Below, in pieces: positions 2,963-26,323 of a DNA stretch of 64,000 nucleotides (within the stretch, counting starts at the first letter, position 1; each line of letters starts with the position of its first letter). The DNA comes from Synechococcus sp. (GTDB lineage Bacteria > Cyanobacteriota > Cyanobacteriia > PCC-6307 > Cyanobiaceae): assembly GCA_047285805.1 (NCBI GenBank), contig JBJBCN010000002.1, positions 288,001 to 352,000 of the forward strand, written 5' to 3'. A program made the position numbers and the translations under genes. The notes below the pieces were generated by a model. The model did not search any database, was not told the DNA's origin, and worked only from the letters and a program-made list of their open reading frames with translations.

Positions 2963-3305
2963 ATGGATAGTCAAGCTCTCCCTTCGCCAATGTGAAGCTG
3001 ATGAGTGCTTTTCTTAACTATCGGTGCAATGCTTCGACTCTCAAGGCGGCTTGTATGAGTGAAACTACTCATTCAATGCATCTCGCATCTTTAAGGTGCA
3101 ATGGCTCGCTTGCTTTGAATTGCGTTAGAAAGAATTCATCTGATTCCAAGAAGGAAGGCCGCCCCTCCCCGGTGGAAGAGACGGCCTACCTAGGTCGTTT
3201 ATACATGGGATGTGCCTATTGCTTGATGGACAAAAGAGAAGGTTGGAGCTTCTGATCTTGACGCCTGGCGCCGAGCTTCCAGTTGTCGGGCCTTCTTACT
3301 CCTTA

Positions 3306-3782
3306 GGGCACCTCACTGGGTGCGGATGGAGTGTCCCCCGGCAGAACCGAGATTTAGGACGTGCCCGTGGTGGATGAGAAAGCCCTGTGGAGCAGGGGTT
3401 TGCGGTCAGCAGCTCACTGATGCTTCTGAGGTGGAGTGTCGTCCAAAACGCCTCCGAGATCGATGGACCCACCATCGGTCCGATTCGAGCAGAGGGCAAT
3501 CAGGCTTTATGCGCATTGCCTTTCAACGGCAGACCTCCGATAGTCAGGACAGCGTGCCTGGAGTGAGAGGCCGCTCAGAGGCTCAGTTGAGCGTTCCCTC
3601 TTCAGACACCCGCAACGAAGTTCGGCAGCGATGCCTACCGGAAGAAGTCACACTACCAGCGAAGGAAGACTCGGTAGTCGTTCCTATTGCAACGACTACC
3701 AGCTGCGGCACCATGCGTCCATTCGGGAGGAAGACGCCCGGGTAGGAACCCCTAACCGCGGAGAAGCCACCGCGGTTTTTTC
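3306..3782 (+). ncRNA. candidate large structured RNA (~480 nt), copy A; contains a GCGA-tetraloop hairpin reminiscent of Cyano-2
   Basis: More than 10 hand-identified stems, a 3' intrinsic terminator and a 3' end homologous to 7669-7747. 5' boundary uncertain. Confidence 0.6.
3754..3781 (+). terminator. intrinsic terminator
   Basis: AACCGCGG-AGAAGCCA-CCGCGGTT then T-run. Confidence 0.8.
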
Positions 3783-3797
3783 ATGTCTACGGAAAAC

Positions 3798-4100
3798 TCA
3801 GTGCCCGGCGTGATCGCCTTCCTCGACGATGGAAATACTGACATTGCTGTGCGGCTCGCGTAGCAATGTCAGTTCCTGGTACTCAGCGGCGTCATAGGCA
3901 GCTTTCGCAGCAGCCAGGCTCTCGAATTCTTTGATCACGGTCAGATGGCACAGGTTGCCTTCTCGAACATCAGTGTTCAACTCTCGAACAAGGAAGCGTG
4001 CTCCGCATTTGGCGAGATAGGAGCCTGCGGCTTCGATGTAAGGCCCCATCCCTTCTGGGTTGGTGATTGAGCCCGCGACGTTCCAGTAGGCCTTGGCCAT
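3798..4100 (-). CDS. DUF1330 family protein
   Basis: 100 aa; GARFLVR..REG..EFESLAAAKAAY..EYQ pattern. Confidence 0.85.
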   Translation of the reverse strand: MAKAYWNVAGSITNPEGMGPYIEAAGSYLAKCGARFLVRELNTDVREGNLCHLTVIKEFESLAAAKAAYDAAEYQELTLLREPHSNVSISIVEEGDHAGH

Positions 4101-4300
4101 TTCCTTTTAGAAGCTCAGAGGATGTTTACGCGCATCTTTTGTGTCAGATGCAGCCTTCCCGCCGGATAGGTCGGTCGGCAGGCCAGCTTGCCGGTGCCGG
4201 TGAGCGTCAACGGCACCGGCGCTTGGGATTTTCGTCTCCGCACCGAATCACCGCAGGGATCTCCTTATCTCGGCGATACTCATATAAAGGCTCCCTCTAG

Positions 4301-4642
4301 ATGGCTTCCAAGTTTTTCCACGTACACCATGAGTTCCGAGCAGGGAAAGCCCAGCTGTGGTGGGAGAAGGCCACTGCGGCTATGGCTCCTGGCGGTGGCT
4401 GGGATGCCGCGGTGGCAATGAACCTTGAGGCAGGCTTCTACAACCACTCTTTCTGTCCTGTTGGTCCAGAAGGACCTGCCTTTTGCATCTGGGAGGTACG
4501 TGAGGGTATTTCCGCCGAAGACTTTCAGGAATTTATTGATGGCCCAAATGGCGTCAACTTTGGACTGGGCGCATGGATGAACATTTGCCGTGAAATCGAT
4601 GTGGACATGGCCGGTCAGACCCCCTACCCCAGGAAATTCTGA
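4301..4642 (+). CDS. conserved picocyanobacterial hypothetical protein
   Basis: 113-aa ORF with clearly protein-like content (FYNHSFCP, FCIWEVREG). Confidence 0.8.
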   Translation: MASKFFHVHHEFRAGKAQLWWEKATAAMAPGGGWDAAVAMNLEAGFYNHSFCPVGPEGPAFCIWEVREGISAEDFQEFIDGPNGVNFGLGAWMNICREIDVDMAGQTPYPRKF

Positions 4643-4819
4643 TCAATCCAATCGCATGTCTGAAGACCCATTTGGCTGCCCATTGCCCTACTGAACAAAT
4701 CTGAGATCCGAGAGGGAACTTGGCAATCATCCGTTTCGGATCACGGTGGTCTCTCGATCGTGTCCTCTGCGTTTATGGCTCTGGTCTATTTAGGTTTGCT
4801 AGGACTGGACGATGGAGGC

Positions 4820-5455
4820 ATGAAACGACGGCTCGTAGCCACAGCCTTGTTGCTGACCGCACCTCCGTTTGTAGCCGGCGACCTGGGACTGGCAGATCAC
4901 GCCCTCTCTGGCCTTGATTCCAAGAACCCCGATTTCAACCGCAAGTCGTTCCAGACCTCAATCCTGTACGGCTCGGATGGCAAAGGCAGCAGAGGGGTAG
5001 ACAAGACAGTCGCATCCTTTGAGGACGGACTGTTCAAGGTGACAACCAGCCCCAAATGTATCCAACAGATCCAGACCTAACGCTCTGGGACTTTTGTACC
5101 CAACGCGAGCTTCGACGAAAAGGGGATTACTCCTGAGCAGGTAATTTCCTTCGACTCGCATGTCGAGCAGGGCATCATTATTTTCTCGGTCTTCTACCGC
5201 GATTCAGAAGGCAAAGCTCAGCTAGCGACCCTTGGGTTCAACCAGAATGACTCGCTTGGGTTTAAGCACGCCTTCCTGAACTGGTTGTCCTCTTCCGCAG
5301 GGCAATCGAGACTTAAGCTCGTCGAACCTCCGATCGAAAAGCCTGAGGAAGCGCCCTACCCAATCCGACGCCAACCAATGCAGGGCAACTACTGGCGGCT
5401 AAGCCCCACGGGCTTGTCGATATATGCGATGCAAGCCACCACTCAGCCGGGTTGA
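4820..5455 (+). pseudogene. signal-peptide protein interrupted by one in-frame TAA (5078-5080)
   Basis: GGAGG-ATG start MKRRLVATALLL; the same frame stays open for ~124 codons after the stop. Confidence 0.65.
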
Positions 5456-6031
5456 TTCCTCGCCAGTGCCTGCTGGGCTTCTTCCATCAACAACCCGATG
5501 CACGGAGTCATCATCGCTGGTCGGTCACACTCGCTGACCTCAAAGTCTTCCGTCAATACGGCGTATGCCCTCTGGGTAGCGATTAGCAAAGCCTCTACGG
5601 AGATGCCGACCTAACCCGGCATGGTCACGCAGAACGAAGCAGACACAAGTCTTGTCTGCTCTTTTCGGTTGGTATGACATCGATAAGAGCCAACCGTGTA
5701 TGCAAACACCCGGGAGCATGTGCTCCGGGGCTCCGGCCGGCGTTTGGCCCTAACCCCTGGCTGCTTGCGCCAAATTGACTGCGGTGCTGGCGAAGGGAGC
5801 AGACAACACCCATGCCCCCTCCTCTCTGGGTAGACGCAAAGATTGCGACAGCACCAGCGCGACTTCACGTTTCTTAAACGAATCCGCCAGAATTGCCGCA
5901 CACGTTTGAAAGCCATGCCTCTCTCAAATCCAGTTGAGTTGGTTACGGCTTTTTTGGCTGCCACCATCGCCCTGTGGTTTGTGGGCCGTAGTGTCCCCTG
6001 GGCAGAACTTGAAATCGAGGGGGAAAAAAAA

Positions 6032-6547
6032 ATGACCCGCCTCGCAGCTGCGGTTCTCAGTTACTTAATTCGGCCTGGACTTGCTGCATCAATAGGTTTA
6101 CTGCTGCTCCGACTGAGCATTGGATTGTTGATGATTCACCACGGACAAGAGAAACTCGCCGATCCCCAGCAGTTTGCTTCCACCTACGTTGCTTCGCTAG
6201 ACCTGCCCTTTCCCATGTTCTTTGCCTATGCAGCTGGTTTTTCGGAGTTACTTGGGAGTTGGCTTGTAATCCTGGGTCTATTCACTCCGCTGGGGGCTCT
6301 CGCTCTCACCTCAACTATGGCCGTGGCGGCCTATCAACACATACTTACAGGTGGGCTCAATATTTATGTTTTGGAGCTTGTATTGCTTTATCTTGGAGGC
6401 AGCCTTGCGATCTTGCTGAATGGACCCGGCCGTTTCTCGTTCGATGCGGGTATGGCTCCGTTTTTGCTGAATAATTCCGTCAGTACCACCTCTACTGGAG
6501 GAAGTGGCCTGCAACCTTCCACTATTCCTATTGAAAGTCGTGAGTAG
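6032..6547 (+). CDS. DoxX family membrane protein (in frame with upstream TM peptide from 5915)
   Basis: LLLLRLSIGLLMIHHGQEKL...ELLGS...GPGRFSFD DoxX motifs. Confidence 0.9.
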   Translation: MTRLAAAVLSYLIRPGLAASIGLLLLRLSIGLLMIHHGQEKLADPQQFASTYVASLDLPFPMFFAYAAGFSELLGSWLVILGLFTPLGALALTSTMAVAAYQHILTGGLNIYVLELVLLYLGGSLAILLNGPGRFSFDAGMAPFLLNNSVSTTSTGGSGLQPSTIPIESRE

Positions 6548-6840
6548 ACGCACTGATTGCCACTGCTACCTGGGCTGCTTCCATTGGCTCAGTTGATTAG
6601 ACGTCCCGCCTAGAAGCCACAGCCGGTTTGTCTTGTACATGGACACCCCCGGCTCACCTGTCTAACTGGCAATACCGCCATCCCACAGATCAAACGCTAG
6701 GTGCAACAGCCCCATCGGCTTCACAAGAGAAGCGCCGGAAGGCTGTTGTTGACGACTGGAGGCATCCAACCGCCGCCACACGGATCGAGGAGTTCACGTC
6801 TCGTCTTCTGGAGTTATGGCAATGCCTGCGAAATCAGGCA

Positions 6841-6892
6841 ACAGCCCCCCAACAACACTTCCCGCGACTGAGCAGTGTTGTTGGGGGGCTGT
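6841..6892. repeat. perfect 19-bp inverted repeat, 14-nt loop
   Basis: ACAGCCCCCCAACAACACT / AGTGTTGTTGGGGGGCTGT. Confidence 0.95.
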
Positions 6893-6993
6893 ATGAGGTG
6901 GTGCCCCCGCTCGGACAACGCTGTCTTCATGGCGCCTTCAGCTCAGTTATGGCTTAGATCGCTTTAGCCATGCCAGGGGCTGGTGGACTGCTG

Positions 6994-7194
6994 TCAGTTC
7001 CGTGCCTGGATCAAGTCATTCAGCAGCTGCGGTATGTCCACCCCTTTGAGCCCCTCATCGGGGATTGCAGCGACTCGGAGGACGTTTGGCTGACTGGCGA
7101 CCACCTTGGCAATGGCGTGTTCGGAATCCATCGCCCGAACCGGATGGATGCTGCAGCGGTTCGAGTCGCAATAGAACACTGAATACGCCGTCAT
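6994..7194 (-). CDS. small hypothetical protein
   Basis: 66-aa ATG ORF with plausible alpha/beta composition. Confidence 0.55.
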   Translation of the reverse strand: MTAYSVFYCDSNRCSIHPVRAMDSEHAIAKVVASQPNVLRVAAIPDEGLKGVDIPQLLNDLIQARN

Positions 7195-7224
7195 ACCAAT
7201 CCAAAGAAATGGTGTGGGCCGCGA

Positions 7225-7374
7225 TGTGAGGAGTGCGACCCTGCGCTGCCGACATGACCACGGGGAGGTAAGGACCTCGTCCGGCTGGTTGGGTCAGCAC
7301 CGTTCGGTCATGGCTCAAGCAGTTCCCTGGACGCAATAGCCAAGGAGCCAGGAGGTGGGACCCAGGCTTTTTTT
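7225..7374 (+). ncRNA. candidate ~150-nt structured RNA with terminator
   Basis: Nested stems TGCG/CGCA, CTGC/GCAG, CATGACC/GGTCATG; 3' hairpin followed by T7 (7346-7374). Strand inferred from the T-run. Confidence 0.45.
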
Positions 7375-7494
7375 GCCCGGAATTCAGCTGTCCGTGATGT
7401 GATCCCGAAGGTTTCCTGTCATTCCTCCCCAACGGCTCGTGGTTGATCGAACTTGTGCGCCCACCAGTTGTGGGATCGATGTTCATAATTGAGG

Positions 7495-7747
7495 TCCTCA
7501 CACCAGGGCTGGAGTCAGGCTGAGGAGCACGAACAACGCGACTTAGCCGAATCGCAGGCAATGCTTACAAGCCAGGCTGATGGGCTCACCTATCGCGTCA
7601 CTAGCTCGGGGTTGAGCACCCTCTGTGTCTTTACGCAGAAAGGTTCGAGCTGCTGGGATCTGGAATCGGCAGCGGCAGCATGACTCCCACGGGAGGAAGA
7701 CGTCCGGGTAGGAATCTCAGACCGCCAAGAAGTCACGGCAGTTTCTT
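7495..7747 (+). ncRNA. candidate structured RNA (~250 nt), copy B, homologous to 3306-3782
   Basis: CATAAT -10-like box at 7484-7489; several hairpins; 24/25-nt identity with copy A at 7690-7714; similar terminal hairpin. Confidence 0.55.
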
Positions 7748-7899
7748 ATTGCCGCTGAACTCATCGAGACGGACGAAGTCCTCTCACGTAACGCCAATTA
7801 CGACGCATGAAGGAAAGCCACCCCCTCCTCCGATCATGGGTTGCTCTCGACCGTGTCGTCAGCGGCTATGGCTTAGGTCTGTCTAGGACTGAAAGGGGT

Positions 7900-8052
7900 T
7901 CAGCAATGGCGCATTGGGTGCTCATCCCCCTCACGGAAGAAGACCTTGCAGCATCCCTCTGCTGGAGGCTGCTTTCGCTTTGCCTTGTGATCTGCGACCA
8001 CAGTTGCCGTGACGAACAAGGTGAGCAGGATGCCGTCGGTGAGCGGCTCCAT
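7900..8052 (-). CDS. 50-aa single-TM microprotein, paralogue of 1318-1476
   Basis: MEPLTDGILLTLFVTATVVADHKAKRKQPPAEGCCKVFFREGDEHPMRHC; GGAGAGG RBS. Confidence 0.75.
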   Translation of the reverse strand: MEPLTDGILLTLFVTATVVADHKAKRKQPPAEGCCKVFFREGDEHPMRHC

Positions 8053-8598
8053 AAACCTCTCCGTGGCTATCTCTGGTCTAGCCCTGACTGGAAGCTTGTG
8101 CAGGGGGCGCCTTAACCGCAGCAGCCACCTTGGTGCAGGGGAACGACCGTTACGCCTCCAAAAACCGCGGGATCCATGAGGACACGCACTTGAAACCCTC
8201 CATTGGGATCTGCGGCAATCTCAATGGTCAATGCAACCAACTACTGACCATCCGCCTTTGAGTAGTTGAGGAGGTCAACTCGCTGAAGCTCCTTGGTTGT
8301 TGCCATCACCATTGGATCTATCGTTGGCTCAAGAATGCTTCAGCGCCTCCCCTGCGCACGAGTGTTGCTGCTGGCACCAAACTCGAGCAGTGCATCAGTT
8401 CCCTGATGGCATCCGAGTGCTGCAGTCGATCGAAATCTCCGTCAGACACTCTGAAAGTTTCGCTGCGATGCAGGACGCGATCGCCTGACTCTCTTGAAGG
8501 AGACTGGTTTTTCAGTGCATGAGGCAGCCTTCGGGTCGCCTTTTCTCTTGCCCCTTGGCATCCACCATGGGCATTCTGGCTGCAGCCGCTTATAGGCC

Positions 8599-8799
8599 TT
8601 GCTTCGTCTGCTCATCGGGATCGGAGTCACCCTGCTTCCTCTGCAGTTGTGGTCGCACCCAAAGGGCATGTATCCATCACAAGCGGCAGCGGCTAAGAGA
8701 GCTCAAGAGCTTGGATGCGAAGGAACTCATAAGAATGAAGGGAAATGGATGCCATGCCTTGACGAGGCCTCGCTCCACCAAGCATTGCGAAAACAGTGA
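8599..8799 (+). CDS. DUF3721-like small secreted protein
   Basis: Signal-like N-terminus; AKRAQELGCEGTHKNEGKWMPC motif. Confidence 0.75.
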   Translation: MLRLLIGIGVTLLPLQLWSHPKGMYPSQAAAAKRAQELGCEGTHKNEGKWMPCLDEASLHQALRKQ

Positions 8800-9062
8800 A
8801 TCTTCGACGCACCCATCGACTGATCGTGCCTGTAGCAGCCGTACCACTACTTGTCACTTCCCTTTCAGGCTCGGTCTACAGCGGCTTGCTTGATCAAGGA
8901 ATCGATGCCTTCTGGCTGTTAAAGCTGCATACCGGCCGGTTCGGACCAATTAATTTGCAGCCCTACTACTCAGTGATTCTTGGCCTATTGACAATTGCAT
9001 TGATTGTCTCTGGTGTATCACTGTTGCTGCCTAAGCGAAGAAGTCCAAGAAGTTCTCAGTAG
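8796..9062 (+). CDS. PepSY-associated TM-helix small membrane protein
   Basis: LRRTHR..PLLVTSLSG..WLLKLHTG pattern; GTGA overlap with upstream gene. Confidence 0.75.
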   Translation: MNLRRTHRLIVPVAAVPLLVTSLSGSVYSGLLDQGIDAFWLLKLHTGRFGPINLQPYYSVILGLLTIALIVSGVSLLLPKRRSPRSSQ

Positions 9063-9918: not shown

Positions 9919-9930
9919 TCACATATTTCA

Positions 9931-10083
9931 CAGAGGCAAGACCCTAGCGGTTTTTGGGTGATGCAATCACTCCCCAGATCACCCTCCAGTAAAGGGAAGG
10001 CGTGAGGTGGTGCGAAATGTACTTCGCCCCACGTCTCGGACAACGGCGCTTGTGGGATCCGTCTCCAGGGCCGTCATGGCCTT
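9931..10083. repeat. ~150-bp direct repeat, copy 2
   Basis: See copy 1; immediately upstream of the minus-strand gene 9619-9918. Confidence 0.9.
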
Positions 10084-11082: not shown

Positions 11083-11156
11083 TCGGGGCGACAGGATTCG
11101 AACCTGCGACCTAGTGCTCCCAAAGCACCCGCGCTACCAAGCTGCGCCACGCCCCG
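11083..11156 (-). tRNA. trnP: tRNA-Pro(TGG)
   Basis: CGGGGCGTGGCGCAGCTTGGTAGCGCGGGTGCTTTGGGAGCACTAGGTCGCAGGTTCGAATCCTGTCGCCCCGA; cloverleaf, anticodon TGG, no encoded CCA. Confidence 0.98.
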
Positions 11157-15391: not shown

Positions 15392-17190
15392 TGGCCAAGC
15401 ACGACCGTCAGCGGCTGGTGCGTCTGCTGCCCTATCTGGGGCGCGACCGCAAACGCCTGCTGCTAACCCTGGTGCTGCTGATCCCTGTGGCCGGTGCCGC
15501 GGCGGTGCAACCGTTACTGGTGGGTCAGGCCATTTCAGCCCTGCGCCAGGAGCCCGTGCTGGCCTGGCTCGAGCCCATGTCCCTATCGGGCCAGCTGCGC
15601 ACCCTTGTGCTGCTGCTGTTGGTGGCGGTCTTGATCCGCCTCGGCCTTCAAGGGCTGCAGAGCTTCAACGTTCAGGCCGTTGGCCAACGTCTGACCGCGC
15701 GGATTCGCAACGATCTATTCGCCCATGCGATGGATCTCTCCCTGCGCTTCCACGACCGCACGCCGGTCGGCAAGTTGCTGACGCGACTGACCAGTGACGT
15801 CGATGCCCTCGCTGAGGTCTTCGGCAGTGGCGCCGTCGGACTGCTGGCCGACCTGGTCACCCTGCTGGTGATCGCCGGAACGATGGTGGCCATTGAACCG
15901 CGTCTCGCGGTGCTGCTGCTGGCGGTGCAACTGCCTGTCACCTTGACGATGCTCTGGCTGCAGAAGCGCTATCGCAAGGCCAACTACCGCGTCCGGGAGG
16001 AGCTCTCTCAGCTGAATGCGGATCTGCAAGAGAACCTCCAGGGATTGGAGGTGGTTCAGATGTTCCGGCGCGAGTCCCACAACTCCGCCCGCTTTTCCCG
16101 CACCGCGGATGCCTACCGCAGTGCCGTCAACAGTACGATTTTCTACGACTCCTCTATCTCTGCCCTGATCGAGTGGGTCTCCCTCGGGGCGATCTCCCTG
16201 GTGCTGGCCCTGGGGGGCTGGATGGTGACCGCCGGCGCTATGGGCCTTGGCACCCTGACCACCTTCATCCTTTATTCCCAGCGCCTCTTTGACCCCCTGC
16301 GCCAACTGGCTGAGCGCTTCACCCAGATCCAGGGGGGCCTCACAGCCGTCGAGCGGATCGGTGAATTGCTCGAGGAGCCCATTGAGATTCAGGAGCTGCC
16401 CCTCAACCAGCGCTCGGCTGCCGCGATCCTCACGGGCAGTGAGATGAGCAGTGCCGGTGAGGTCGTCTTTGAGAACGTCTCCTTCGCCTACCGACCGGAC
16501 GACCCGATCCTCACCGACCTCTCCTTCCGGATCGCCCCCGGTGAACACGTCGCACTGGTAGGACCGACCGGTTCTGGCAAGACCACGATCATTCGCCTGC
16601 TCTGCCGTCTCTATGAGCCCCAGCAGGGCCGGATCCTGCTGGATGGCGTCGACATCCGCGAGTTGCCGATCCCGACCCTGCGCCAACGCCTGGGGGTGGT
16701 GCTTCAGGACACCTTCCTCTTCAGCGGCAATGTCTCAGATAACCTCCGCCTCGATGGCTCAGTCAGTGATGCCGAGCTGGAGCGCATCTGTTTCGAGCTC
16801 GGACTGGAGCCCCTTCTGGATCGGCTGTCCTCCGGCCTGACCACCGAGCTGCGGGAGCGGGGCAGCAACCTCTCCTCCGGTGAGCGTCAGCTGCTCTCGG
16901 TTGCCCGGGTGGCGATCCGTAACCCCTCGGTCCTGGTCATGGACGAGGCCACGGCCTTTCTCGATCCCTCCACCGAGGCGACCCTGCAGCGTGACCTCGA
17001 CAAGCTTCTGCGCCAGCGCACCGCTATTGTTATTGCCCACCGTCTGGCCACCGTGGAAGCGGCCCACCGGATCCTGGTGCTCCAGCGCGGTCGCCTAATT
17101 GAAGAGGGCACCCATATCGCCCTGCGCGCTGCAGGTGGGCTCTACGCCCAGTTGGCTGAACTGCAGGAGCGCGGCTTGGCGAAGCTCTAG
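15391..17190 (+). CDS. ABC exporter, fused permease/ATPase (MdlB-like)
   Basis: Six-TM domain plus GPTGSGKT, LSSGERQ, MDEATA. Confidence 0.93.
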   Translation: MAKHDRQRLVRLLPYLGRDRKRLLLTLVLLIPVAGAAAVQPLLVGQAISALRQEPVLAWLEPMSLSGQLRTLVLLLLVAVLIRLGLQGLQSFNVQAVGQRLTARIRNDLFAHAMDLSLRFHDRTPVGKLLTRLTSDVDALAEVFGSGAVGLLADLVTLLVIAGTMVAIEPRLAVLLLAVQLPVTLTMLWLQKRYRKANYRVREELSQLNADLQENLQGLEVVQMFRRESHNSARFSRTADAYRSAVNSTIFYDSSISALIEWVSLGAISLVLALGGWMVTAGAMGLGTLTTFILYSQRLFDPLRQLAERFTQIQGGLTAVERIGELLEEPIEIQELPLNQRSAAAILTGSEMSSAGEVVFENVSFAYRPDDPILTDLSFRIAPGEHVALVGPTGSGKTTIIRLLCRLYEPQQGRILLDGVDIRELPIPTLRQRLGVVLQDTFLFSGNVSDNLRLDGSVSDAELERICFELGLEPLLDRLSSGLTTELRERGSNLSSGERQLLSVARVAIRNPSVLVMDEATAFLDPSTEATLQRDLDKLLRQRTAIVIAHRLATVEAAHRILVLQRGRLIEEGTHIALRAAGGLYAQLAELQERGLAKL

Positions 17191-17915
17191 GCCAGCGTTC
17201 GCTCTAGCCAGTTCTCCAGTACCTCGGCCAGGGGACCTGGTGCACTGCGCATTGGCAGGTGCCCTTCTCCGGCTAACTCGTGCATTTCAGCGCCGCTGGC
17301 GTAGCCGGCGAGATGGCGCACGTACCGCGGCTCCATCACCGTGTCCTTGCTCCCCACCACCCAGAGGCTGGGCACCGTCAGCTGGCTGGCGAGCGCCGGC
17401 AATTGGCGCACGGCTCCGCTCTGCATGCTGCAGGCCAGTAGCCCCCGGGCGGCGCGTAATTCCGCCACCAGCGGGCTGCGAATGGCTTCGGTGCCAGGCA
17501 GTTGCGCCAGCCAGGTCGGGCGCCAACGCAAAAACGTGGCGCCGCCATTGCGCACCATCCGAAACGGCCGCGGCTGATAGACCCCGCCGCCCGAGGCGAT
17601 CTGGATAATGCCTCGCAGCTGCCCCCCGAGCTGGGGGGCGGCATGCAGCACCAGGCTTCCCCCCAGAGAATGGCCGATCAGCACGATTGGTCGCCCCTGG
17701 GCCCGCTCCCGTGCCGCTTCGGCGAGCCAACGGCCGTAGCTGACCAAGTTGGTGCGGAGCTCCTTCGGGCGTGGGCGTTGGCCAAAGCCCGGCAGATCCG
17801 GGGTCCAGCAGTCCCAGCGCGGCTCCAGAGCTTGGGTCAGGGGCTCCCAGAGCCGCCCTGAGAGCAGCCAGCCGTGCACGCCAACCAGCAGAGGTGCCGC
17901 GTTCAGGGATCCCAA
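17187..17915 (-). CDS. alpha/beta fold hydrolase
   Basis: HGW, DLPGFG, GHSLGG nucleophile elbow. Confidence 0.9.
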   Translation of the reverse strand: MGSLNAAPLLVGVHGWLLSGRLWEPLTQALEPRWDCWTPDLPGFGQRPRPKELRTNLVSYGRWLAEAARERAQGRPIVLIGHSLGGSLVLHAAPQLGGQLRGIIQIASGGGVYQPRPFRMVRNGGATFLRWRPTWLAQLPGTEAIRSPLVAELRAARGLLACSMQSGAVRQLPALASQLTVPSLWVVGSKDTVMEPRYVRHLAGYASGAEMHELAGEGHLPMRSAPGPLAEVLENWLERTLA

Positions 17916-17955
17916 TGCAAGAAACGGACCCAGCCTGCATCAATGCGGTGACCTG

Positions 17956-18489
17956 GTGGGTCAAGATCAACCCAGCACTGGAGCGGGATCCGTTCTGATT
18001 GGTTCCACAGCCACCGAACTCGAGGAGCTCTACGGCCGGGACCATCGCGTGTGCGCGACGCCCCATGCGAAGGCCTCCCTGGTCTTGAGCCTGGAGCGGG
18101 AGATTGACCTCTACGAACTCGAACAGCTCACCGATGCGGTGGGCTGGAGCCGCCGTCCCCTGCGACGGGTGCGCAAGGCCCTGGAGAACAGCCTCCTGGT
18201 GGTGGCCCTCTGGCGCCATGACGCGCGTCTGCCGCGCCTGGTCGGATTTGCCCGCTGCACCGGCGATGGCGTGATCGAGGCCACCGTCTGGGACGTGGCG
18301 GTCCATCCCCATTATCAAGGGCTGGGCCTGGGTAAACAGCTGATGCAGTACGTCATTGAGCGGCTGCAGTTGATGCAGGTGGAGCGCATTAGCCTCTTCG
18401 CCGATCCAGGCGTGATCGAGTTCTACGGCGCCCAGGGCTGGGAGCTGGAACCCCAGAACCGTCGCTGCGCCTTCTGGTACGCCCCCTAG
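17956..18489 (+). CDS. GNAT acetyltransferase (Ycf52-like); start approximate
   Basis: VGWSRRP, DVAVHPHYQGLGLGK, FY..GW. Confidence 0.88.
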   Translation: MGQDQPSTGAGSVLIGSTATELEELYGRDHRVCATPHAKASLVLSLEREIDLYELEQLTDAVGWSRRPLRRVRKALENSLLVVALWRHDARLPRLVGFARCTGDGVIEATVWDVAVHPHYQGLGLGKQLMQYVIERLQLMQVERISLFADPGVIEFYGAQGWELEPQNRRCAFWYAP

Positions 18490-19172
18490 CGGTAGTAGCG
18501 CTGGGACAGCTCGTCCTCGGTGGCCCCCTGACGCCAAGCCCGCCGCAGGGAGGCATTACGTTGTGCCGTTTTCAGTACCCCATCCTGTCTCCAGCGGCGG
18601 CCATGGACCGCCAGCGGTAGGCCGAGAGGGCGGATCGGGGCCAGCGGTTGCAGCCGTTGGATCAGATCCAGGTCTTCCATCAGCGCAAGGGGGCGCATGC
18701 CGCCGGCCTGCTCGAGGAGTGCGCGTGGGAGCAGTAGCCCCTGATCGCCGTAGGGAAGGGTCCTTAGCTGGCAGCGCCAGTGGACGGCCCACTCGAGCAG
18801 CCGCAGGTTGAGGCCAGTAGCGGCGACCTGGAAGTCGAAGTACCAGGCGGCTGGTTCATCGGCCATGGCCCGCTCCACCCGCTTCCCCCACCCCGTGGGG
18901 AGTCGCGAATCGGCGTGTAACAGCAACAGCCAGGGAGCCGTTGCCGCCGTAATGCCGACCTGCAGTTGCCGTCCCCGGTTGGCAGCACTGCGCAGCACCT
19001 GGGCCCCAGCCCGTTGGGCGACCGCGGCGGTGTCTGGTTCAGGGCTGGAATCCACCACGATCGTCTCGCGCACCAGCCCGGTTGGTCCCTGCTGAAGGTC
19101 CGCCAGCAATAGGGGCAACCGCTCAGCCTCCATCAGCGTCGGGATGACCACCGCCAGGGAAGGCCGGCTCAT
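18486..19172 (-). CDS. family 2 glycosyltransferase (TIGR04283 type)
   Basis: VVIPTL.EA, LLLHADS, LPYGDQG, LMEDL. Confidence 0.9.
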   Translation of the reverse strand: MSRPSLAVVIPTLMEAERLPLLLADLQQGPTGLVRETIVVDSSPEPDTAAVAQRAGAQVLRSAANRGRQLQVGITAATAPWLLLLHADSRLPTGWGKRVERAMADEPAAWYFDFQVAATGLNLRLLEWAVHWRCQLRTLPYGDQGLLLPRALLEQAGGMRPLALMEDLDLIQRLQPLAPIRPLGLPLAVHGRRWRQDGVLKTAQRNASLRRAWRQGATEDELSQRYYR

Positions 19173-19831
19173 GGCGGCGGCAACTGGCAGCGCCACCAGT
19201 CCTCGAGGTCCTGGCCTTCGTCGAGATCCTTCTGCTCCCGCAGCAGCTGCACCGGCAAGGCGCGTTGGGCCGCCGCCGCCAAGCTGGCTTGCAGCACCTG
19301 GCCCGTTCCCCAGGGGATGCCACTCATGAGGTGGGCGCCGGCCCACTGGAATCCAGCGCGGTTCAGGCCAATCAACCAGTAGCCCCCATCGCAGGCGGGT
19401 CCGATCACCAGGGGTGCGCTCAGCAGGGCCTCGGCGGCCGATTCCAGGTCCTGGGTTTCCAGGCCAGGCAGGTCCGTGCCGATGACGAGTACCCGTTCAG
19501 CCCCCGCCTGAAAGGCCCGCTGTAGTTGCCGTTGCATGCGGCAGCCCAAATTGCCGCTCCCCTGCGCGCTCAACTGCGCGCCCGGTGCGATGGGTTGCAG
19601 CTGCAGCTGCCAGCGTCGAAGGCCGCGGGGGCCCAGTCCGTCGACGGCGACCTCCAGGCTGTGCTCGTGCCGCTGGCTCCAGCTGCCGCCCACTTGCAGG
19701 CTGTGCTGGGTGAGCCGGCATTGCACCTGGGTCGCGCTCCAACGACCTGTCTGGCGGGCCAGGCGGCTTTTGCAGCGGCCGGGGGCTGGCCAGCGGGCCA
19801 TGACCACCAGCGTCAACGGGGCACTGGCCAT
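19169..19831 (-). CDS. TIGR04282/DUF2064 glycosyltransferase-like protein
   Basis: MARWPAPGRCKSRL, IGTDLP, GPACDGGYWLIGL; overlaps its TIGR04283 partner. Confidence 0.9.
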   Translation of the reverse strand: MASAPLTLVVMARWPAPGRCKSRLARQTGRWSATQVQCRLTQHSLQVGGSWSQRHEHSLEVAVDGLGPRGLRRWQLQLQPIAPGAQLSAQGSGNLGCRMQRQLQRAFQAGAERVLVIGTDLPGLETQDLESAAEALLSAPLVIGPACDGGYWLIGLNRAGFQWAGAHLMSGIPWGTGQVLQASLAAAAQRALPVQLLREQKDLDEGQDLEDWWRCQLPPP

Positions 19832-19838
19832 TCCGCGC

Positions 19839-21032
19839 CTACTTTCCGCGCGGGAGTTCGGCGGGTTTGATCTGCAGGGTCAGGGTTCGTTCCTTGCGCT
19901 GGATCACGATCGCCAGGTTCTGGCCGACCCGGCCCTGGTCCACTGCGACCTGCACTTCAGAGGGGTTCTTCACGGGTTTGCCCCCAACCTGCTCGATCAG
20001 GTCACAGGCGCGCATGCCTCCCTTGGCGGCCGGGCTGCCTGGGATGACCTCCACGACGACGACCCCCTTGGTTTCCGGCAGGCGGCATTCGGCATCAGTA
20101 GCATTCACTTCCCGGGCCAGCTGGGGGGTAAGGGCCTGCAGGCGTACGCCGATATACGGATGGGAGGCTTGGCCGCGATCCAGGATTTGAGCGGCAATCT
20201 GGCGCCCAAGGTTGATCGGGATGGCAAAGCTCAGGCCCGCCCCTGGGGCCTGTCGGATGGCGGTGTTGATCCCAATGACCTGGCCCCGGTCATTGATCAA
20301 GGGGCCGCCGCTGTTGCCGGGGTTCACGGCCGCGTCGGTCTGGATGTAGGGGACCCGCTGCCCTTCGCCGAGGGCATTAGTCCGCTGTACGGCACTGATG
20401 ATGCCCAAGGTGACGGTGTTGTCGAGGCCGAGGGGGTTGCCAATCGCAATCGCCCATTCGCCCGGCCGCACGCTTTTGGAGTTGCCCAGGGGGGCTACCG
20501 GCAGGTTGGCGGCAGCCACCTTGACCACGGCGACATCGGTGATCGGGTCGGAGCCCAGCACCTTGCCTTTGAAGTTGCGCCCATCGGGCAGCGTCACGCC
20601 GACTTCATTGGTGCCCTCCACCACGTGGGCGTTGGTCAGGATCACCCCGTCCGAGCGGGTGATGAAGCCCGAGCCTTGCCCCTGCTGTTGCTGGACCGAC
20701 GGGCCGCTGCCAAAGAGTCCCCCCATCGGGTTGACCACCCGCCGCACCGTGTCGATGCGCACCACCGCCGGTCCCACTTTGTCGACGGCGTTGACCACAA
20801 AGCTTTTGCCCCCAGGCAGCGGAGCAGCAGCGGGGGCATCACTGACTTGAGCAGGATCACTGCCCTTGCCACTACTCCAGCTGGGCAGACGCAGCCCGGT
20901 GCCGTTGCAGCCGCTTAATCCCACGCCGAGCAGCAGGCAACCCAAGGCGACCTGGGGGCGAACGCCATGCATCAAACGGGTCATGCTGCGCGCGGGCGTG
21001 GGGCAGGTGTTCAGGCGCATCATCGGAGACAC
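19839..21032 (-). CDS. htrA: HtrA/DegQ serine protease with PDZ domain
   Basis: GSGF, TNAHVV, TDAAVNPGNSGGPL; lipobox-like LSGC. Confidence 0.93.
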   Translation of the reverse strand: MSPMMRLNTCPTPARSMTRLMHGVRPQVALGCLLLGVGLSGCNGTGLRLPSWSSGKGSDPAQVSDAPAAAPLPGGKSFVVNAVDKVGPAVVRIDTVRRVVNPMGGLFGSGPSVQQQQGQGSGFITRSDGVILTNAHVVEGTNEVGVTLPDGRNFKGKVLGSDPITDVAVVKVAAANLPVAPLGNSKSVRPGEWAIAIGNPLGLDNTVTLGIISAVQRTNALGEGQRVPYIQTDAAVNPGNSGGPLINDRGQVIGINTAIRQAPGAGLSFAIPINLGRQIAAQILDRGQASHPYIGVRLQALTPQLAREVNATDAECRLPETKGVVVVEVIPGSPAAKGGMRACDLIEQVGGKPVKNPSEVQVAVDQGRVGQNLAIVIQRKERTLTLQIKPAELPRGK

Positions 21033-21077
21033 TGCCCTGAGAGACCACCCCTATATTCATGAACCCCAGGTGATGAC

Positions 21078-22484
21078 GTGACGGTGCAGCAGGGAGAAAC
21101 GCTGTGGCGTCACGTTCAGGCAGCACTCCAAGGGAACCTCTCCAAGCCCACCTTTGAGACCTGGATCCGTCCAGCGACCTGTGCCGCACTCCAGGGCAAC
21201 GAACTTCAGCTCCTCGCCCCCAACACCTTTGCCTGCGGCTGGCTGCGCAAGAACTACCTGAGCACCATCGCGGCGGTCGCCAGCGAGATCGCCGGTCGGT
21301 CGATCGCGGTCAGCGTGGAAGCCGGCGGCGAATCGGCCCAGGGCATCACCTTGAACGGTCAGCCCCCCACCACCGCCGGCGTGGACGCCGCCCCCGGCAC
21401 TCCCGCTCCCCAGCAACGCACCGCCACGGGCGAAGCCCCGCGCAAGTTGGCTCCGGGCCTGAACCCCCGCTACGTCTTCAACCGCTTTGTGGTCGGGCCG
21501 AACAGCCGCATGCCCCATGCGGCGGCCCTCGCCGTTGCCGAATCCCCCGGCCGTGAATTCAATCCCCTCTTCATCTGCGGTGGCGTTGGTCTGGGCAAGA
21601 CCCACCTGATGCAGGCCATCGGTCACTACCGCCTTGAGATTGACCCTGACGCCCGCGTCGCCTACGTCAGCACCGAGACCTTCACCAACGATCTAATCCA
21701 AGCCATCCGCAAGGACGGCATGCAGAAATTCCGGGACCGCTACCGGGCCGCCGATCTTATCCTCGTGGATGACATTCAGTTCATTGAAGGCAAGGAATAC
21801 ACCCAAGAAGAGTTCTTCCATACCTTCAATGCCCTGCATGAAGCCGGGCGCCAGATCGTCATCGCCAGCGATCGCCCCCCCAGCCAAATTCCCCGGCTGC
21901 AGGAGCGCTTGATCTCACGCTTCTCGATGGGCCTCATCGCCGACATCCAGACCCCGGATCTGGAAACACGGATGGCGATCCTGCACAAAAAGGCTGAGCA
22001 CGAGCGGGTCAGCCTGCCCCGGGACTTAATCCAATACCTGGCGGGTCGCTTCACATCCAACATCCGTGAACTTGAGGGTGCCCTGACCCGTGCCGTCGCC
22101 TTCGCCTCTATCACGGGCCTACCAATGACTGTGGAATCGGTCGCGCCGATGCTCGATCCCGCGGGCGTCGAGGTCGAGGTGACCCCTGAGCAAGTCCTTA
22201 GCAAGGTGGCCGAGGTCTTTGGTGTCGGCGTCGATGAAATGAAGAGCGCCAGCCGCAAACGGGCCGTCAGCCAAGCCCGTCAGGTGGGCATGTATCTGAT
22301 GCGTCAGGGCACCAACCTCTCCCTACCGCGCATTGGCGATGCCTTTGGTGGAAAAGATCACTCCACGGTGATGTACGCCGTCGAGCAAACCGAGAAGAAG
22401 CTTGCGGCGGATCCCCAGCTGGGTCGCCAGGTGCAGCATGTGCGCGATCTGCTGCAGATCGACTCCCGCCGCCGCACCCGCTAG
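21078..22484 (+). CDS. dnaA: chromosomal replication initiator DnaA
   Basis: [30 protein letters not shown]. Confidence 0.98.
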
Positions 22485-22487
22485 GCG

Positions 22488-23435
22488 TTAACCGGTAATC
22501 GGCTCACTGGGGTCGAGGCCTTCGACTTCACCGGAGAAGACGCGGCTGGCGGCTATGTCATCCGCTTCGATCGTCATCAGATCCAGCTTGGTGAGCTGAC
22601 TGCTGTTCATCCAATTGAACAGACGATTGGCCTGGCGCATCCGTGCACGATCGATCGCATTGCGAATGGAGCGGGCATTGGCAAAGAACGGCAGTTGCAT
22701 GCGCCGATCGATGTAATCCGCGAAGGCCGCCAGGGCCTCATCGCTGAAGCGGTAGTTCTCCTCCGCGAGGATCAACCGGGCAATCGCGAGCAGCTCGGTC
22801 GCGCTGTAATCCGGGAAATCAATGTGATTGGCGACCCGGGAGGACAGGCCTGGATTGCTTTGGTAAAAGACATCCATGCGCTCCTTGTAGCCCGCAAAGA
22901 TGACGACGAGATCATCGCGGTTGTTCTCCATCACCTGAAGCAGGATCTCGATCGCCTCCGCGCCATAGTCCCGCTCGTTCTCAGGGCGATAGAGGTAATA
23001 GGCCTCGTCGATGAACAGCACCCCGCCCATCGCTTTTTTGAGCATCTCCCGCGTTTTCGGTGCGGTGTGGCCGATGTATTGCCCGACCAGATCATCCCGG
23101 GTGGCAGTGACCACATGGCCTTTGCGTACGTAGCCGAGCTTGTGCAGGATTTGCGACATTCGCTTGGCCACGGTCGTCTTGCCCGTGCCCGGCCTACCCG
23201 TGAAGGACATGTGCAGGCTGGGGGCCGTCGTGGAGAGCCCTACCTGCTTGCGTGCGCGATCGACGACCAGCAGGGCCGCGATTTCACGGATCCGCGTTTT
23301 GACAGGTTTGAGGCCGATCAGCTCCTGGTCGAGTTGATCGAGAACGTCCTGGACCTCGGCCCCTTCGTAGGCGGCCTGGAGATCAACCGGCGTGCTGTCG
23401 GGCTGCTCAGACGAGGCCATCGATGGCAGCGGCAA
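22488..23435 (-). CDS. cbbX: CbbX Rubisco activase-type AAA+ ATPase
   Basis: [28 protein letters not shown]. Confidence 0.96.
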
Positions 23436-23661
23436 AGGCGTGGTCAGCCTCGCCGATGCTGCCCCCCTCCTCTTCGGGCCGCAGGGTGATGTTCACGTAT
23501 GTACGCCCAAAACTGATGTCGGGGTAGCGCCCTTCCTGCTCGCAGAAGTCGTTGAGGCGATCGAGAAAGGCCCTATTGCCTGCGTAGTCTTCGAATTCAA
23601 TCCGCCGCTCCAGCCACTCGACGCGATCGGGCTTGGGCCGGGGGTTCCAAAGATGATCCAT
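23407..23661 (-). CDS. pterin dehydratase-like Rubisco assembly factor (acRAF)
   Basis: [21 protein letters not shown]; located in the cso locus. Confidence 0.85.
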
Positions 23662-23670
23662 GGTTTGAAC

Positions 23671-24813
23671 CTACGCCGCGAGGCAGTCGGTCCGGCCAAT
23701 GACCAGCCGCGCTGCCCAAGAGGCGGCGTAGGCCCGGTTGGCCTCCTGTTCCTCCGGGTTACTGGTGTTCAAGGCATGGGGCATAGTGCCGCTGATGGCC
23801 GCGTTGGTAACGCAGAACATCGACTTCTGGAAGCTGCGGCAGATCTTTTCGCGTACATCCCCCTCGCCTCGGGTGCGCTCCCAGTACCACTTGTGCAGGC
23901 GCTGTGGCAGATGGCGGTACATGTCCTGCATCAGTAGGCTCGGCGGAACCCCCGCACCCATCGTGGGCAGGGGATCAGCGTAGAGAGCGCCGTAGGTGAA
24001 GGTCGCCTGGTCCGGTGAGATCTGCTGGGCCTGGGCGTTGTAGCTGACGGTGCCAAGGAAGGGCATGCCCCGCAGGAAGACCGCTTCGACGTAGGGCACT
24101 GCCACATCCACCAAGAAGGTGAGCTTGGCCTCGGGCGGCAAGATCCAGAACTGTTCCCCGCCGATCTTCACGCCATATTCGATCGGGTTGGCTGCGGCGG
24201 CCACCAGTCCCTGTTTGATGAAGTCGACCACATCCGGGATCGAGCGCACAGCGCCAGAGTGCTCGGCCTTGGCCAGATCGATAAACAAATCGCTCATCAC
24301 ACGCCAGAACTGACCGAGGGCATGGGTCGTGGCGGCGTTGCGGATCAGTTCACTCAGGAAATCCGGGAAGAGCGGATGCAGGATCGCCAGCAGCGGGTCG
24401 CGCCGGCGCTTGGCGGCGATGATCGCTTTGCAGTTCTCGTCGAAGGCCTCACTATCGAAGTAGGCATCCATTCCGCCGGTGGCATGCCAGAGCATGCCTT
24501 TCATGCAGTACTCGGCGTACTCGAAGTTGATCCGGTCGTGGTTGAGGTGGCGCCAGATCTTCGCGGGGCTGAGGTCCCCGTCGAGGTACTTGAAGATCGG
24601 GAATGGATTAAGGAACTGATGTTCCCCTTGGTAGATCAGGTTCTTGCTATAGGCATCGAGCACTTCGCCATAGCTCTCGAGCACATCGACCACCTCGATG
24701 AGATGATCGGGGGTATCGCTCAGGAGGGTCTCACCGCCGAGCAGCTTGGCGGTGATCTGCTCGGTGTCGAGGCCGGGATTGCTGTGAACCAGCTCGGCAG
24801 GAATAACAGGCAT
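23671..24813 (-). CDS. cupB: CO2 hydration protein CupB/ChpX
   Basis: HDRINFEYAEYC, GTVSYNAQA; 380 aa fits CupB better than the longer CupA. Confidence 0.88.
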   Translation of the reverse strand: MPVIPAELVHSNPGLDTEQITAKLLGGETLLSDTPDHLIEVVDVLESYGEVLDAYSKNLIYQGEHQFLNPFPIFKYLDGDLSPAKIWRHLNHDRINFEYAEYCMKGMLWHATGGMDAYFDSEAFDENCKAIIAAKRRRDPLLAILHPLFPDFLSELIRNAATTHALGQFWRVMSDLFIDLAKAEHSGAVRSIPDVVDFIKQGLVAAAANPIEYGVKIGGEQFWILPPEAKLTFLVDVAVPYVEAVFLRGMPFLGTVSYNAQAQQISPDQATFTYGALYADPLPTMGAGVPPSLLMQDMYRHLPQRLHKWYWERTRGEGDVREKICRSFQKSMFCVTNAAISGTMPHALNTSNPEEQEANRAYAASWAARLVIGRTDCLAA

Positions 24814-24814
24814 T

Positions 24815-26323
24815 TCAGCTCACTCCCATCGATTGCAGGGCTAAGGCGGTGATCGAGTTCTCGCTCAGGTAGCTGAGGCCAAACGGTAAGAGGCCAAGTC
24901 CAACAATCGCTGCCGCTAGGGCGATGGCCGGATAGGTCTCCCTCGGAGCAACCGGTGCCAGTTGTACGTCCAAGCGTGCGTCCTTTATCGGGTCGTCGCT
25001 GTCCGGGGTAATCGAGAGACGGCCGAAGAAGGCACGGTTCACCAGTAGCAGGAAGTAAACAGCCGTCAGACCCGAGCCAACCATCGAGAGAAGGGTGGCG
25101 ACAGGGAAGGCCGCGATGCTGCCGCGGAACACCAGGAACTCGGAGATGAAACCAGCCATGCCCGGCAAGCCAGCGCTGGCCATGACCGCCAGGATCATCA
25201 GGGTTCCGGTCAAGGGGAGACCCTTCTCTGGACTCAACAAACCATGGAGGACCTTTAGATCGCGGGTGCCGGTCTTGCGGTAGACGATTCCCACCAGCAG
25301 GAACAGGAGAGCCGAAATCAGACCGTGGGCCACCATCTGAAAGACGGCTCCAAGCAAGCTGATCGGAGTATTGGCTGCGGCAGCTAAGAGCACATAACCC
25401 ATGTGGCCGACCGAGCTGAAGGCCACCATCCGTTTCATGTCGGTCTGAGCGATGGCGGCCAGGGAGCCATAGAGCACGGAGATGGCCGCCCAGATGGCCA
25501 ATCCCGGGGCGAGTTCAGCCCAAGCTTCCGGGAAGAGCTGGAGGCCAAAGCGCAGTAGGCCATAGGTGCCGAGTTTCAGCAGCACACCCGCTAGCAGTAC
25601 AGAGACCGGCGTGGCTGCCTGGGTGTGGGCATCCGGCAGCCAGTTGTGCAGGGGCACCAGGGGTATCTTGATGCCAAAGCCCAGCAGGATCGCCACCAGT
25701 AGAACGATTTGACCGCCCATGGCCAGGCGATCGGAGAGGACCGGGGTGATGCTGAAGTCGACGCTACCGGTAAGCAGGGCTAAGCCCAGGAAGGCGCCGA
25801 GGATCAACATCCCGGAGATGGCCGTGAAGATCAGAAACTTCGTGGCGGCATAAGTCCTGTTCGCTCCGCCCCAAACCGAGATGAGCAGCCAGAGCGGGAT
25901 CAGCTCCAGCTCATAGAAGAGGAAAAAGAGAAGCAGGTTGTCGGCGATGAACGCGCCATTCACGGCACCGCTGATCAGCAGCAGCATCGCGAAATAAATC
26001 CGCGGCCTTCGTTCGATATCACGGGTGATGACAGCCGAAACCAAGGTCAGGGCGGCATTGATCAGCACCAACGGCAGGGAGAGGCCGTCGATCCCGAGGG
26101 AATAATCCAGACCGATGCCCGGTAGCCAGCTGTGGAATTCCTTCAGCTGCATCCCGGCAATGCTGGGATCGAACTGGACGGTGATCACCAGGCTGGCCAC
26201 CAGCTGGACCACAAGGATGGCGATCGTGATTAGGCGCAGCCGTCCTAGGGGTTGGTCCCCAGGCCAGAGCAGCAGGACGGCGGTCCCCAGGAAGGGGATC
26301 AGAAGTAGAGAACTCAGCAACAT
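24815..26323 (-). CDS. ndhD4: NDH-1 subunit D4 (CO2 uptake)
   Basis: NuoM family motifs (PLHNWLPDAH, LKLGTYG); operon with cupB. Confidence 0.88.
   Translation of the reverse strand: MLLSSLLLIPFLGTAVLLLWPGDQPLGRLRLITIAILVVQLVASLVITVQFDPSIAGMQLKEFHSWLPGIGLDYSLGIDGLSLPLVLINAALTLVSAVITRDIERRPRIYFAMLLLISGAVNGAFIADNLLLFFLFYELELIPLWLLISVWGGANRTYAATKFLIFTAISGMLILGAFLGLALLTGSVDFSITPVLSDRLAMGGQIVLLVAILLGFGIKIPLVPLHNWLPDAHTQAATPVSVLLAGVLLKLGTYGLLRFGLQLFPEAWAELAPGLAIWAAISVLYGSLAAIAQTDMKRMVAFSSVGHMGYVLLAAAANTPISLLGAVFQMVAHGLISALLFLLVGIVYRKTGTRDLKVLHGLLSPEKGLPLTGTLMILAVMASAGLPGMAGFISEFLVFRGSIAAFPVATLLSMVGSGLTAVYFLLLVNRAFFGRLSITPDSDDPIKDARLDVQLAPVAPRETYPAIALAAAIVGLGLLPFGLSYLSENSITALALQSMGVS

Follow-up and report, generated by a model that had tools for sequence, protein, structure and literature searches.

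The stretch between positions 3306 and 3782 of the window (the whole 64,000 nucleotides of DNA analyzed here, G000:C2:288001–352000) is a chimera: it joins part of a minus-strand RNA of Yfr103 type and that RNA's two-way promoter to a very small RNA gene unrelated to them. A real non-coding RNA gene does lie here, with strand and ends that differ from those first proposed, and very probably one already described rather than new: we are highly confident that positions 3464 to ∼3148 (minus) hold a diverged paralog of Yfr103, recognized by its features and not by sequence-to-sequence comparison. The identification was made because length, multiple copies, distribution and palindrome position agree. 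As judged from sequence, the family, stand-alone RNAs of ∼290–330 nt from picocyanobacteria of ocean and lake, combines a sigma70-type promoter, a covarying core of ∼220–270 nt and an intrinsic terminator, with neither a conserved reading frame nor a fixed neighbour. A preliminary description of this DNA had proposed one ∼480-nt RNA on the plus strand. It was right in placing here a large, structured RNA that is non-coding and has no known function; its outline of that RNA had to be redrawn.

Yfr103 was reportedly first described by Voigt et al. in 2014. In Synechococcus CC9605 it is represented by seven paralogs of 290–328 nt, and it made up 55.2% of the Synechococcus start-site reads obtained in situ from a Red Sea sample (Hou et al. 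2016, PMC5069720). According to passages of the same report, WH7803, RCC307 and low-light Prochlorococcus carry homologs, the structure is conserved, an imperfect palindrome lies at −29 to −58 and the function is unknown (PMC5069720). Passages of a later study give a length of 304 nt, the absence of an Rfam model, and occurrence in LLI–LLIV but not HL1/HL2 (Lott et al. 2020, PMC7368042). The RNA has been published as extremely abundant and responsive to light and temperature. A full-text literature search for Yfr103 returned Hou et al. 2016 alone, with Voigt 2014 and Gierga 2012 lying beyond its reach, and passages of PMC2518516, PMC2864571, PMC6191309, PMC6596454 and PMC12873609 do not describe a Yfr103-type family.

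The locus belongs to a low-G+C island that makes up the first 11 kb of the window (47–58% G+C versus 57–69% beyond) and ends at a tRNA-Pro gene (11083–11156). On either side of the flagged stretch lie a Glutamine-II riboswitch (2947–2884, minus) and a DUF1330 gene (4100–3798, minus). The riboswitch (55.3 bits), 200 nt downstream of the terminator of the Yfr103-type RNA on the same strand, precedes a minus-strand ORF at 2866–2459 that is DUF4278-like, below the Pfam cut-off. The island also holds a ∼160-nt repeat pair (1–163 and 9920–10083, 76–84% identical) and a ∼52-nt repeat triple (4756, 7849 and 10840), which may be additional cassettes of small RNAs or promoters.

When the genome was searched at the DNA level, the 477-nt stretch fell into parts that recur independently of each other. 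In order, it comprises part of a multicopy family (3245–3464, minus), promoter DNA (3465–3544), a leader remnant (3551–3609), an insertion junction (3609/3610) and a second repeat family (3673–3781). Because window positions 3154–3609 are joined straight to position 8439 onward both in L016, from a sister genome, and in a paralog at C2:729.7–730.8 kb, 3610–8449 was taken as an insertion of ∼4.84 kb, bounded by an 8-bp direct repeat (3602–3609, second copy 8442–8449; plus). The insertion begins at 3609/3610; therefore, the proposed ∼480-nt RNA would span its junction, and the two halves of that RNA were found separately in the genome, so that a single transcript from 3306 to 3782 was abandoned. 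All eight of the stems listed in support of it were recovered in place, but folding of the stretch as one unit is weak, or marginal, when set against shuffles (plus strand z −1.65, 4 of 100 shuffles as good; minus strand z −1.66, 6 of 100). Rfam gave no match anywhere within 3306–3782 at E≤10. Only one of these stems, GAGGTG/CGCCTC (3428/3449), matches a family helix; GGGCAC (3306), paired earlier with 3361, pairs locally with 3319–3323 in the family model, CCCTG/CAGGG is complete only through substitutions unique to the window copy, and the GCGA hairpin (3624–3635), offered as a sign of Cyano-2, lies inside the insert and outside the family core and was recovered in no paralog.

The start of a leader (3551–3609, plus) is retained next to the junction, and in two related loci it continues into DUF3721 and PepSY_TM-like genes, which in the window were displaced to 8442–9062 by the insertion. 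A further copy (L040) has its breakpoint at the same leader site, which suggests a recombination hot spot in the leader at the site of insertion. The 141-aa ORF at 3320–3745 (plus) is spurious, as the preliminary description had supposed: it has no Pfam match, is frameshifted in all three of its closest copies (with stops in two of them), and the net length difference to the window copy is a multiple of three in only 23 of 63 homologs.

The family profile matched the window at 3243–3463 on the minus strand (100.9 bits). A predicted −10 box occupies 3471–3476 (minus), with A−11 at 3475 and T−7 at 3471, and the start (+1 A) was placed at 3464 from the −10/−35 spacing, distances being counted ungapped from one invariant column (window 3464). 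On the minus strand of aligned homologs, A−11 and T−7 were each present in 50 of 50 and the TTG of the −35 box in 47, 45 and 46 of 50, and the spacer had a fixed length without sequence conservation. With no motif filter applied, 117 of the 142 non-redundant elements carried the promoter pattern, whereas only 4 of the 142 did so when read in the control direction; a terminator-like run followed the core in 111 of 142, by a crude pattern used without a control. Homologs carry a hairpin and U-run behind the core, and the intrinsic terminator of the window copy (3146–3187, minus), with a 14-pair stem and a short U/C tail, is common to its paralogs. A start at 3464 and a terminator at 3187–3146 yield a predicted full transcript of ∼317 nt (3148–3464, minus; 3' end approximate), consistent with the promoter alignment and the profile match, and approximate family lengths obtained with a rough pattern were 249–350 in 45 of 63 measurable loci. 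With the promoter and terminator of the large RNA both on the minus strand, the earlier orientation is reversed and the earlier boundaries give way to 3464 and ∼3148. A plus-strand reading of the large family was ruled out by the same promoter and terminator analysis, and counts of G-U versus A-C (128 versus 131) carried no strand signal.

RNA contigs at the WH7803 copy (L250, predicted start 1750) offer a hint on start and level. In two runs of one study the contigs reach 1737 and 1734 and cover no position further on, and in a run of another study contig depth, a poor measure, was 16,477–25,000 versus 541–605 on the flanks (27–46x, in one of four runs). The fourth run (X21) gave zero cover at this locus.

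Upstream of the start, an imperfect palindrome (3493–3522; AGGGCAAT...ATTGCCTT) covers exactly −29 to −58 and comprises two back-to-back −35 boxes (minus 3499–3494; plus 3516–3521), the proximal half being the −35 box of the RNA and the distal half a −35 box on the opposite strand. Its core half-sites at −55 to −51 and −36 to −32 were conserved in 36–47 of 50 per base, and it is possibly also a regulator site. Two stems formerly read as RNA structure belong to this region, since AGGGCAAT/ATTGCCTT is the promoter palindrome itself and GATCGATGG/CCATCGGTC straddles the start site and the −10 box.

A conserved mirror (divergent) promoter was an unexpected extra, predicted from sequence with a −10 box at 3539–3544 (plus) and a start at ∼3551. 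The opposite A−11 and T−7 stood exactly 17 nt on in 72 of 87 filtered loci, while other spacings were found in 13 (one base further), 19 (at +7) and 0–9 loci (at 14 other offsets); among unfiltered loci with both TTG motifs, an opposite −10 box was present in 70 of 77. The mirror promoter occurred in 69 of 96 high-scoring copies versus 1 of 46 low-scoring ones (score under 110), and in two related loci it faces the leader and the DUF3721/PepSY_TM-like genes. The published CC9605 start-site table holds no opposite start near the expected 87-nt offset for any of its seven Yfr103 genes (a positive control worked); since natural-community reads were mapped to one reference for that table, strain-variable flanks could escape it. 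RNA contigs from two runs gave no cover at the mirror promoter of the WH7803 copy. Text passages on Yfr103 in PMC5069720 and PMC7368042 mention neither a mirror promoter, nor presence in freshwater Cyanobium/Vulcanococcus, nor a second sub-family in which most copies lack the distal half-site.

The conserved structured core (3245–3464, minus) was modelled on an alignment of 64 copies (A3) using pair counts. After a 5' hairpin comes a long helix with interruptions (the long-range helix), which closes a three-way junction; one arm of the junction is a hairpin of variable length and the other a GCACC/GGUGC hairpin that is nearly invariant. The pairs were set by hand because the structure predicted by RNAalifold from A3 was poor and incomplete and contained a long-range helix foreign to the family. 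Across the resulting 52-pair model, which was set from covariation and then counted on the same alignment of kindred copies, 90.3% of cells were paired versus 85.4±0.2 in shuffles, and double changes were found in 23 of the 52 pairs versus 13.6±1.7. None of 500 shuffles reached either value, and slid partners paired in 31–43%. One helix of the model pairs in only 72% of cells, the alignment register being the cause. Invariant unpaired or junction bases gather in CUCCAACA, AGGUGCCC and UGGCCC and are kept in a divergent sub-family. This sub-family (L289–L303; genera g41, g44, g50, g55 and g60) has long insertions in the loop of the invariant hairpin and is mostly without the distal promoter half-site.

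The window copy belongs to a sub-lineage of four copies from two genomes, 90–93% identical, in which the variable hairpin is shortened and some helices are compensated. Compared to the other three, it has 8 private core changes, one of them in the invariant GGCCCC, and it departs from columns at least 90% conserved at 14–16 positions (median 1). In the MAFFT alignment it keeps 35 of the 52 pairs (median 47), a loss due partly to register errors. Fold scores of the core (40 shuffles each) were z −0.3 for the window copy, 0.03 for its twin and −1.2 to −4.9 for the other five full copies; at full length the window copy scored z −1.02. Its promoter is intact. By these comparisons the window copy is unusually diverged, more so than any other, and may be decaying or specialised.

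Eight copies of the family (family window ∼3146–3520) were found in G000, seven of them full and one with an internal deletion. In the latter (L006; G000:C2:278,700–278,930) the whole junction domain is cleanly lost and the outer helices and promoter are kept, making it a natural deletion variant. Among genomes of the host's taxonomic family, the element was detected in 225 of 300 by DNA search and in 130 of 150 by sequence profile, a positive genome giving between 1 and about 10 matches, and the named relatives that carry it include Synechococcus, Cyanobium, Vulcanococcus and Prochlorococcus records, WH7803 (L132) and RCC307 (L219) among the carriers. The profile search returned no match in two genera, g33 (0 of 11) and g29 (0 of 7). 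One genus of 1.6–1.7-Mb genomes, which may be the high-light clade, was empty by DNA search (0 of 27) and by profile (0 of 11). Beyond the taxonomic family, weak matches were obtained in 5 of 139 genomes (E≥5e-4), of which the three checked sit in long ORFs and the other two align poorly. The homolog search employed a sequence-only model with no structure term; remote structural homologs outside the family are therefore possible. For eight typical homolog loci, Rfam returned nothing at E≤1.

Phage and plasmid collections contained no match, and 1 of 33 viral-contig pattern matches was real, among host-like genes. That copy (L306:1859–2069, on an IMG/VR contig) lies next to a Mo-nitro_C/TerB-domain gene in what looks like host DNA. 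Nine further real copies, eight full-length and one cut by a contig end, came from MAG contigs labelled non-cyanobacterial (L130, L137, L141, L180, L185, L201, L212, L224 and L240), which are probably mislabelled or misbinned. Clustering of ORFs within 1.5 kb of 201 elements, used by itself, produced no neighbour cluster common to most, whether of mobility genes in general or of the transposase, nuclease or reverse transcriptase that would accompany a mobile-element guide or retro-element RNA: the two largest clusters were frames overlapping the element, a 46-locus cluster consisted partly of such frames, and the next held 24 loci. Eight small-genome loci occupy one common syntenic site. Identical pairs and a tandem triple of the element also exist among genomes of the taxonomic family; three tandem copies with equal scores lie 450 bp apart at G107:C1:2,267,989–2,269,128, and an inverted pair with equal scores is separated by 1.5 kb at G075:C1:120,422–122,405. 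A cis-regulatory leader or riboswitch finds no consistent downstream gene here, with a terminator behind the core and neighbours that vary across the 201 elements.

The other end of the flagged stretch belongs to a second family, element C (∼3670–3785), which has seven copies in this genome, in the window (3721–3781 and 7665–7750) and elsewhere on C2 (at 161.3, 280.4, 284.5, 727.6 and 1337.5 kb), and strong DNA matches in only one other (G023) of 44 genomes of the genus. Alignment of the seven copies suggests a promoter at 3673–3714 (plus), with a palindromic upstream motif, a TTGC box, A−11 at 3710 and T−7 at 3714, in front of a candidate small RNA of ∼61 nt (3721–3781, plus) made of a 5' hairpin, a single-stranded GGUAGG and a terminator (3754–3781). 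The fold of 3660–3790 scored z −2.70, and element C has no relevant Rfam family. It is a candidate for a separate RNA gene with its own promoter and ownership of the plus-strand terminator: the intrinsic terminator reported in the preliminary description is present, with its hairpin placed at 3754–3777 by the terminator prediction, but would end this ∼61-nt RNA and not a larger one. The perfect 10-bp stem reported just ahead of it has mismatches in paralogs and falls in promoter DNA, before the start of the second RNA. Elsewhere in the window, the upstream motif of element C (GTAG.CG...ATTG) occurs at 5830 and 6544, on both sides of a DoxX-family gene, with no RNA behind; an ATTGC half-site of this motif is common to the Yfr103-type promoter.

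As to function, the Yfr103-type RNA may be a protein-binding decoy or scaffold with its dose set by copy number, a proposal made tentatively, at a little under even chances, from anatomy and abundance. Such an RNA would act in trans and stoichiometrically. Its compact multi-helix fold would present invariant junction bases to a protein, which would be sequestered or scaffolded during light or temperature acclimation, and the dose would be adjusted by DNA duplication of the whole promoter–RNA–terminator cassette into genomic islands. Taken as a whole, identity and mechanism together are likely to be the best explanation of the locus. Because the palindrome appears to form overlapping opposite promoters, polymerase or a dimeric regulator might direct transcription either to the RNA or to the flank. 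If true, this would be a protein-titrating RNA in a portable cassette whose mirror promoters act as a toggle, with polymerase flipping under some condition to the island gene or antisense strand beyond, an extension we regard as distinctly unlikely. Were the toggle real, it would constitute a mobile regulatory switch of an undescribed kind, with a single 24-bp palindrome providing both −35 boxes.

Several other readings compete with the decoy or scaffold proposal. Cyanobacterial sRNAs such as Yfr1/Yfr2 usually work by base pairing, and the Yfr103-type RNA has several conserved C-rich motifs, so that regulation of mRNAs by pairing through C-rich stretches (anti-Shine-Dalgarno-like CUCC/ACUCC) is the leading alternative, albeit a rather unlikely one. 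Most CUCC motifs are paired within the RNA model, however, and the longest perfect genome complements were 13, 11 and 10 nt for three of five motifs, the other two falling under the 9-nt floor. Only the 10-mer occurred more often than a uniform model predicts (26 versus 4.5), an excess for which high G+C can account, and a 240-nt invariant-rich fold exceeds what a seed would need.

The cassette could instead be a selfish element or passenger spreading among islands, or a portable two-way promoter with a recombination repeat, which we hold to be quite unlikely. Spread of this kind would fit the 1 to about 10 matches per genome, the variable sites, identical pairs and tandem copies, the insertion junction only 145 bp from the start site of the Yfr103-type RNA, the existence of degenerate and deleted copies, and the two loci in which the mirror promoter faces a leader and DUF3721 gene. 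It fits poorly with occurrence in 130 of 150 genomes of the taxonomic family, with the single syntenic site of the eight small-genome loci and with the compensated helices; furthermore, neighbour clustering (done without Pfam) showed no common mobility gene, and the phage and plasmid collections were without a match, the sole real viral-contig match (1 of 33) being among host-like genes.

A trans-acting aptamer or ribozyme, binding a ligand or catalytic, is improbable: no Rfam similarity was found for the eight typical loci at E≤1 and, because the terminator lies directly behind the core, there is no downstream gene for the RNA to control, despite the invariant junction bases, sheared G-A-like closing pair and asymmetric internal loops seen in all sub-families. 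Lastly, a single ∼480-nt plus-strand RNA (3306–3782) containing a domain like Cyano-2, or else a gene for a 141-aa protein, is scarcely credible, for although the stems and the plus-strand terminator (3754–3781) are present, the RNA would cross the insertion junction, its halves occur apart in the genome, Cyano-2 similarity was not found and the ORF is broken in all three closest copies.

Yfr103 accounts for 55% of Red Sea Synechococcus start-site reads (PMC5069720), yet in the published passages it has no known function and no Rfam model. The present analysis contributes a structure backed by covariation, the anatomy of the promoter, a record of where in the family the RNA occurs and where it is naturally absent, and natural variants that show deletion or decay. 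With structure, promoter, distribution and natural variants now supplied, the question of Yfr103 function becomes directly testable. The copy in the window, a diverged example, contributes little to the biology on its own.

Among known systems, 6S RNA and CsrB-type RNAs are abundant, stand-alone RNAs that act by titrating protein. They provide a working analogy only for a protein-binding Yfr103-type RNA, in which no Rfam match, symmetric promoter-like bubble or GGA-loop array was found. Cyano-2 (RF01702) is similarly a multicopy structured element of picocyanobacterial islands, but differs in size and distribution and shares no sequence similarity. The link to Cyano-2 drawn in the preliminary description was not borne out, as no match in the genome passed the cut-off and the family bears it no resemblance. 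The best score in the genome was 12.7 bits, elsewhere, versus a 40-bit cut-off; Cyano-2 was present in 5 of 121 genomes of the taxonomic family, all of another genus, and the best match of the Yfr103-type family inside a Cyano-2 locus had E=5.5. Cyano-2 has GCGA-capped hairpins in two stem-loops, whereas one GCGA hairpin is found here (3624–3635), outside the core. Yfr8/Yfr9 of Prochlorococcus MED4 are likewise island ncRNAs, of 290 nt, but are reported in passages of PMC2518516 only from high-light strains, where they form a sense/antisense pair that includes a 44-aa ORF, unlike the Yfr103-type family with its lack of a conserved ORF. Yfr2 promoters with CGRE1/PMM1637, as presented in passages of PMC6191309, share an inverted repeat from near −55, a 13–14-nt spacer and an abundant picocyanobacterial RNA; the CGRE1 flanks are GTTG/GTTA, whereas the Yfr103-type half-site is GCAAT and each half is also a −35 box. 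With Yfr103 itself, apart from the unusual divergence of the window copy, the published passages agree in length (here ∼317 nt, published 290–328), in the presence of paralogs (here eight), in a palindrome at −29 to −58, in a range of marine Synechococcus and low-light Prochlorococcus, in the absence of an Rfam model and an unknown function, and in having a conserved secondary structure.
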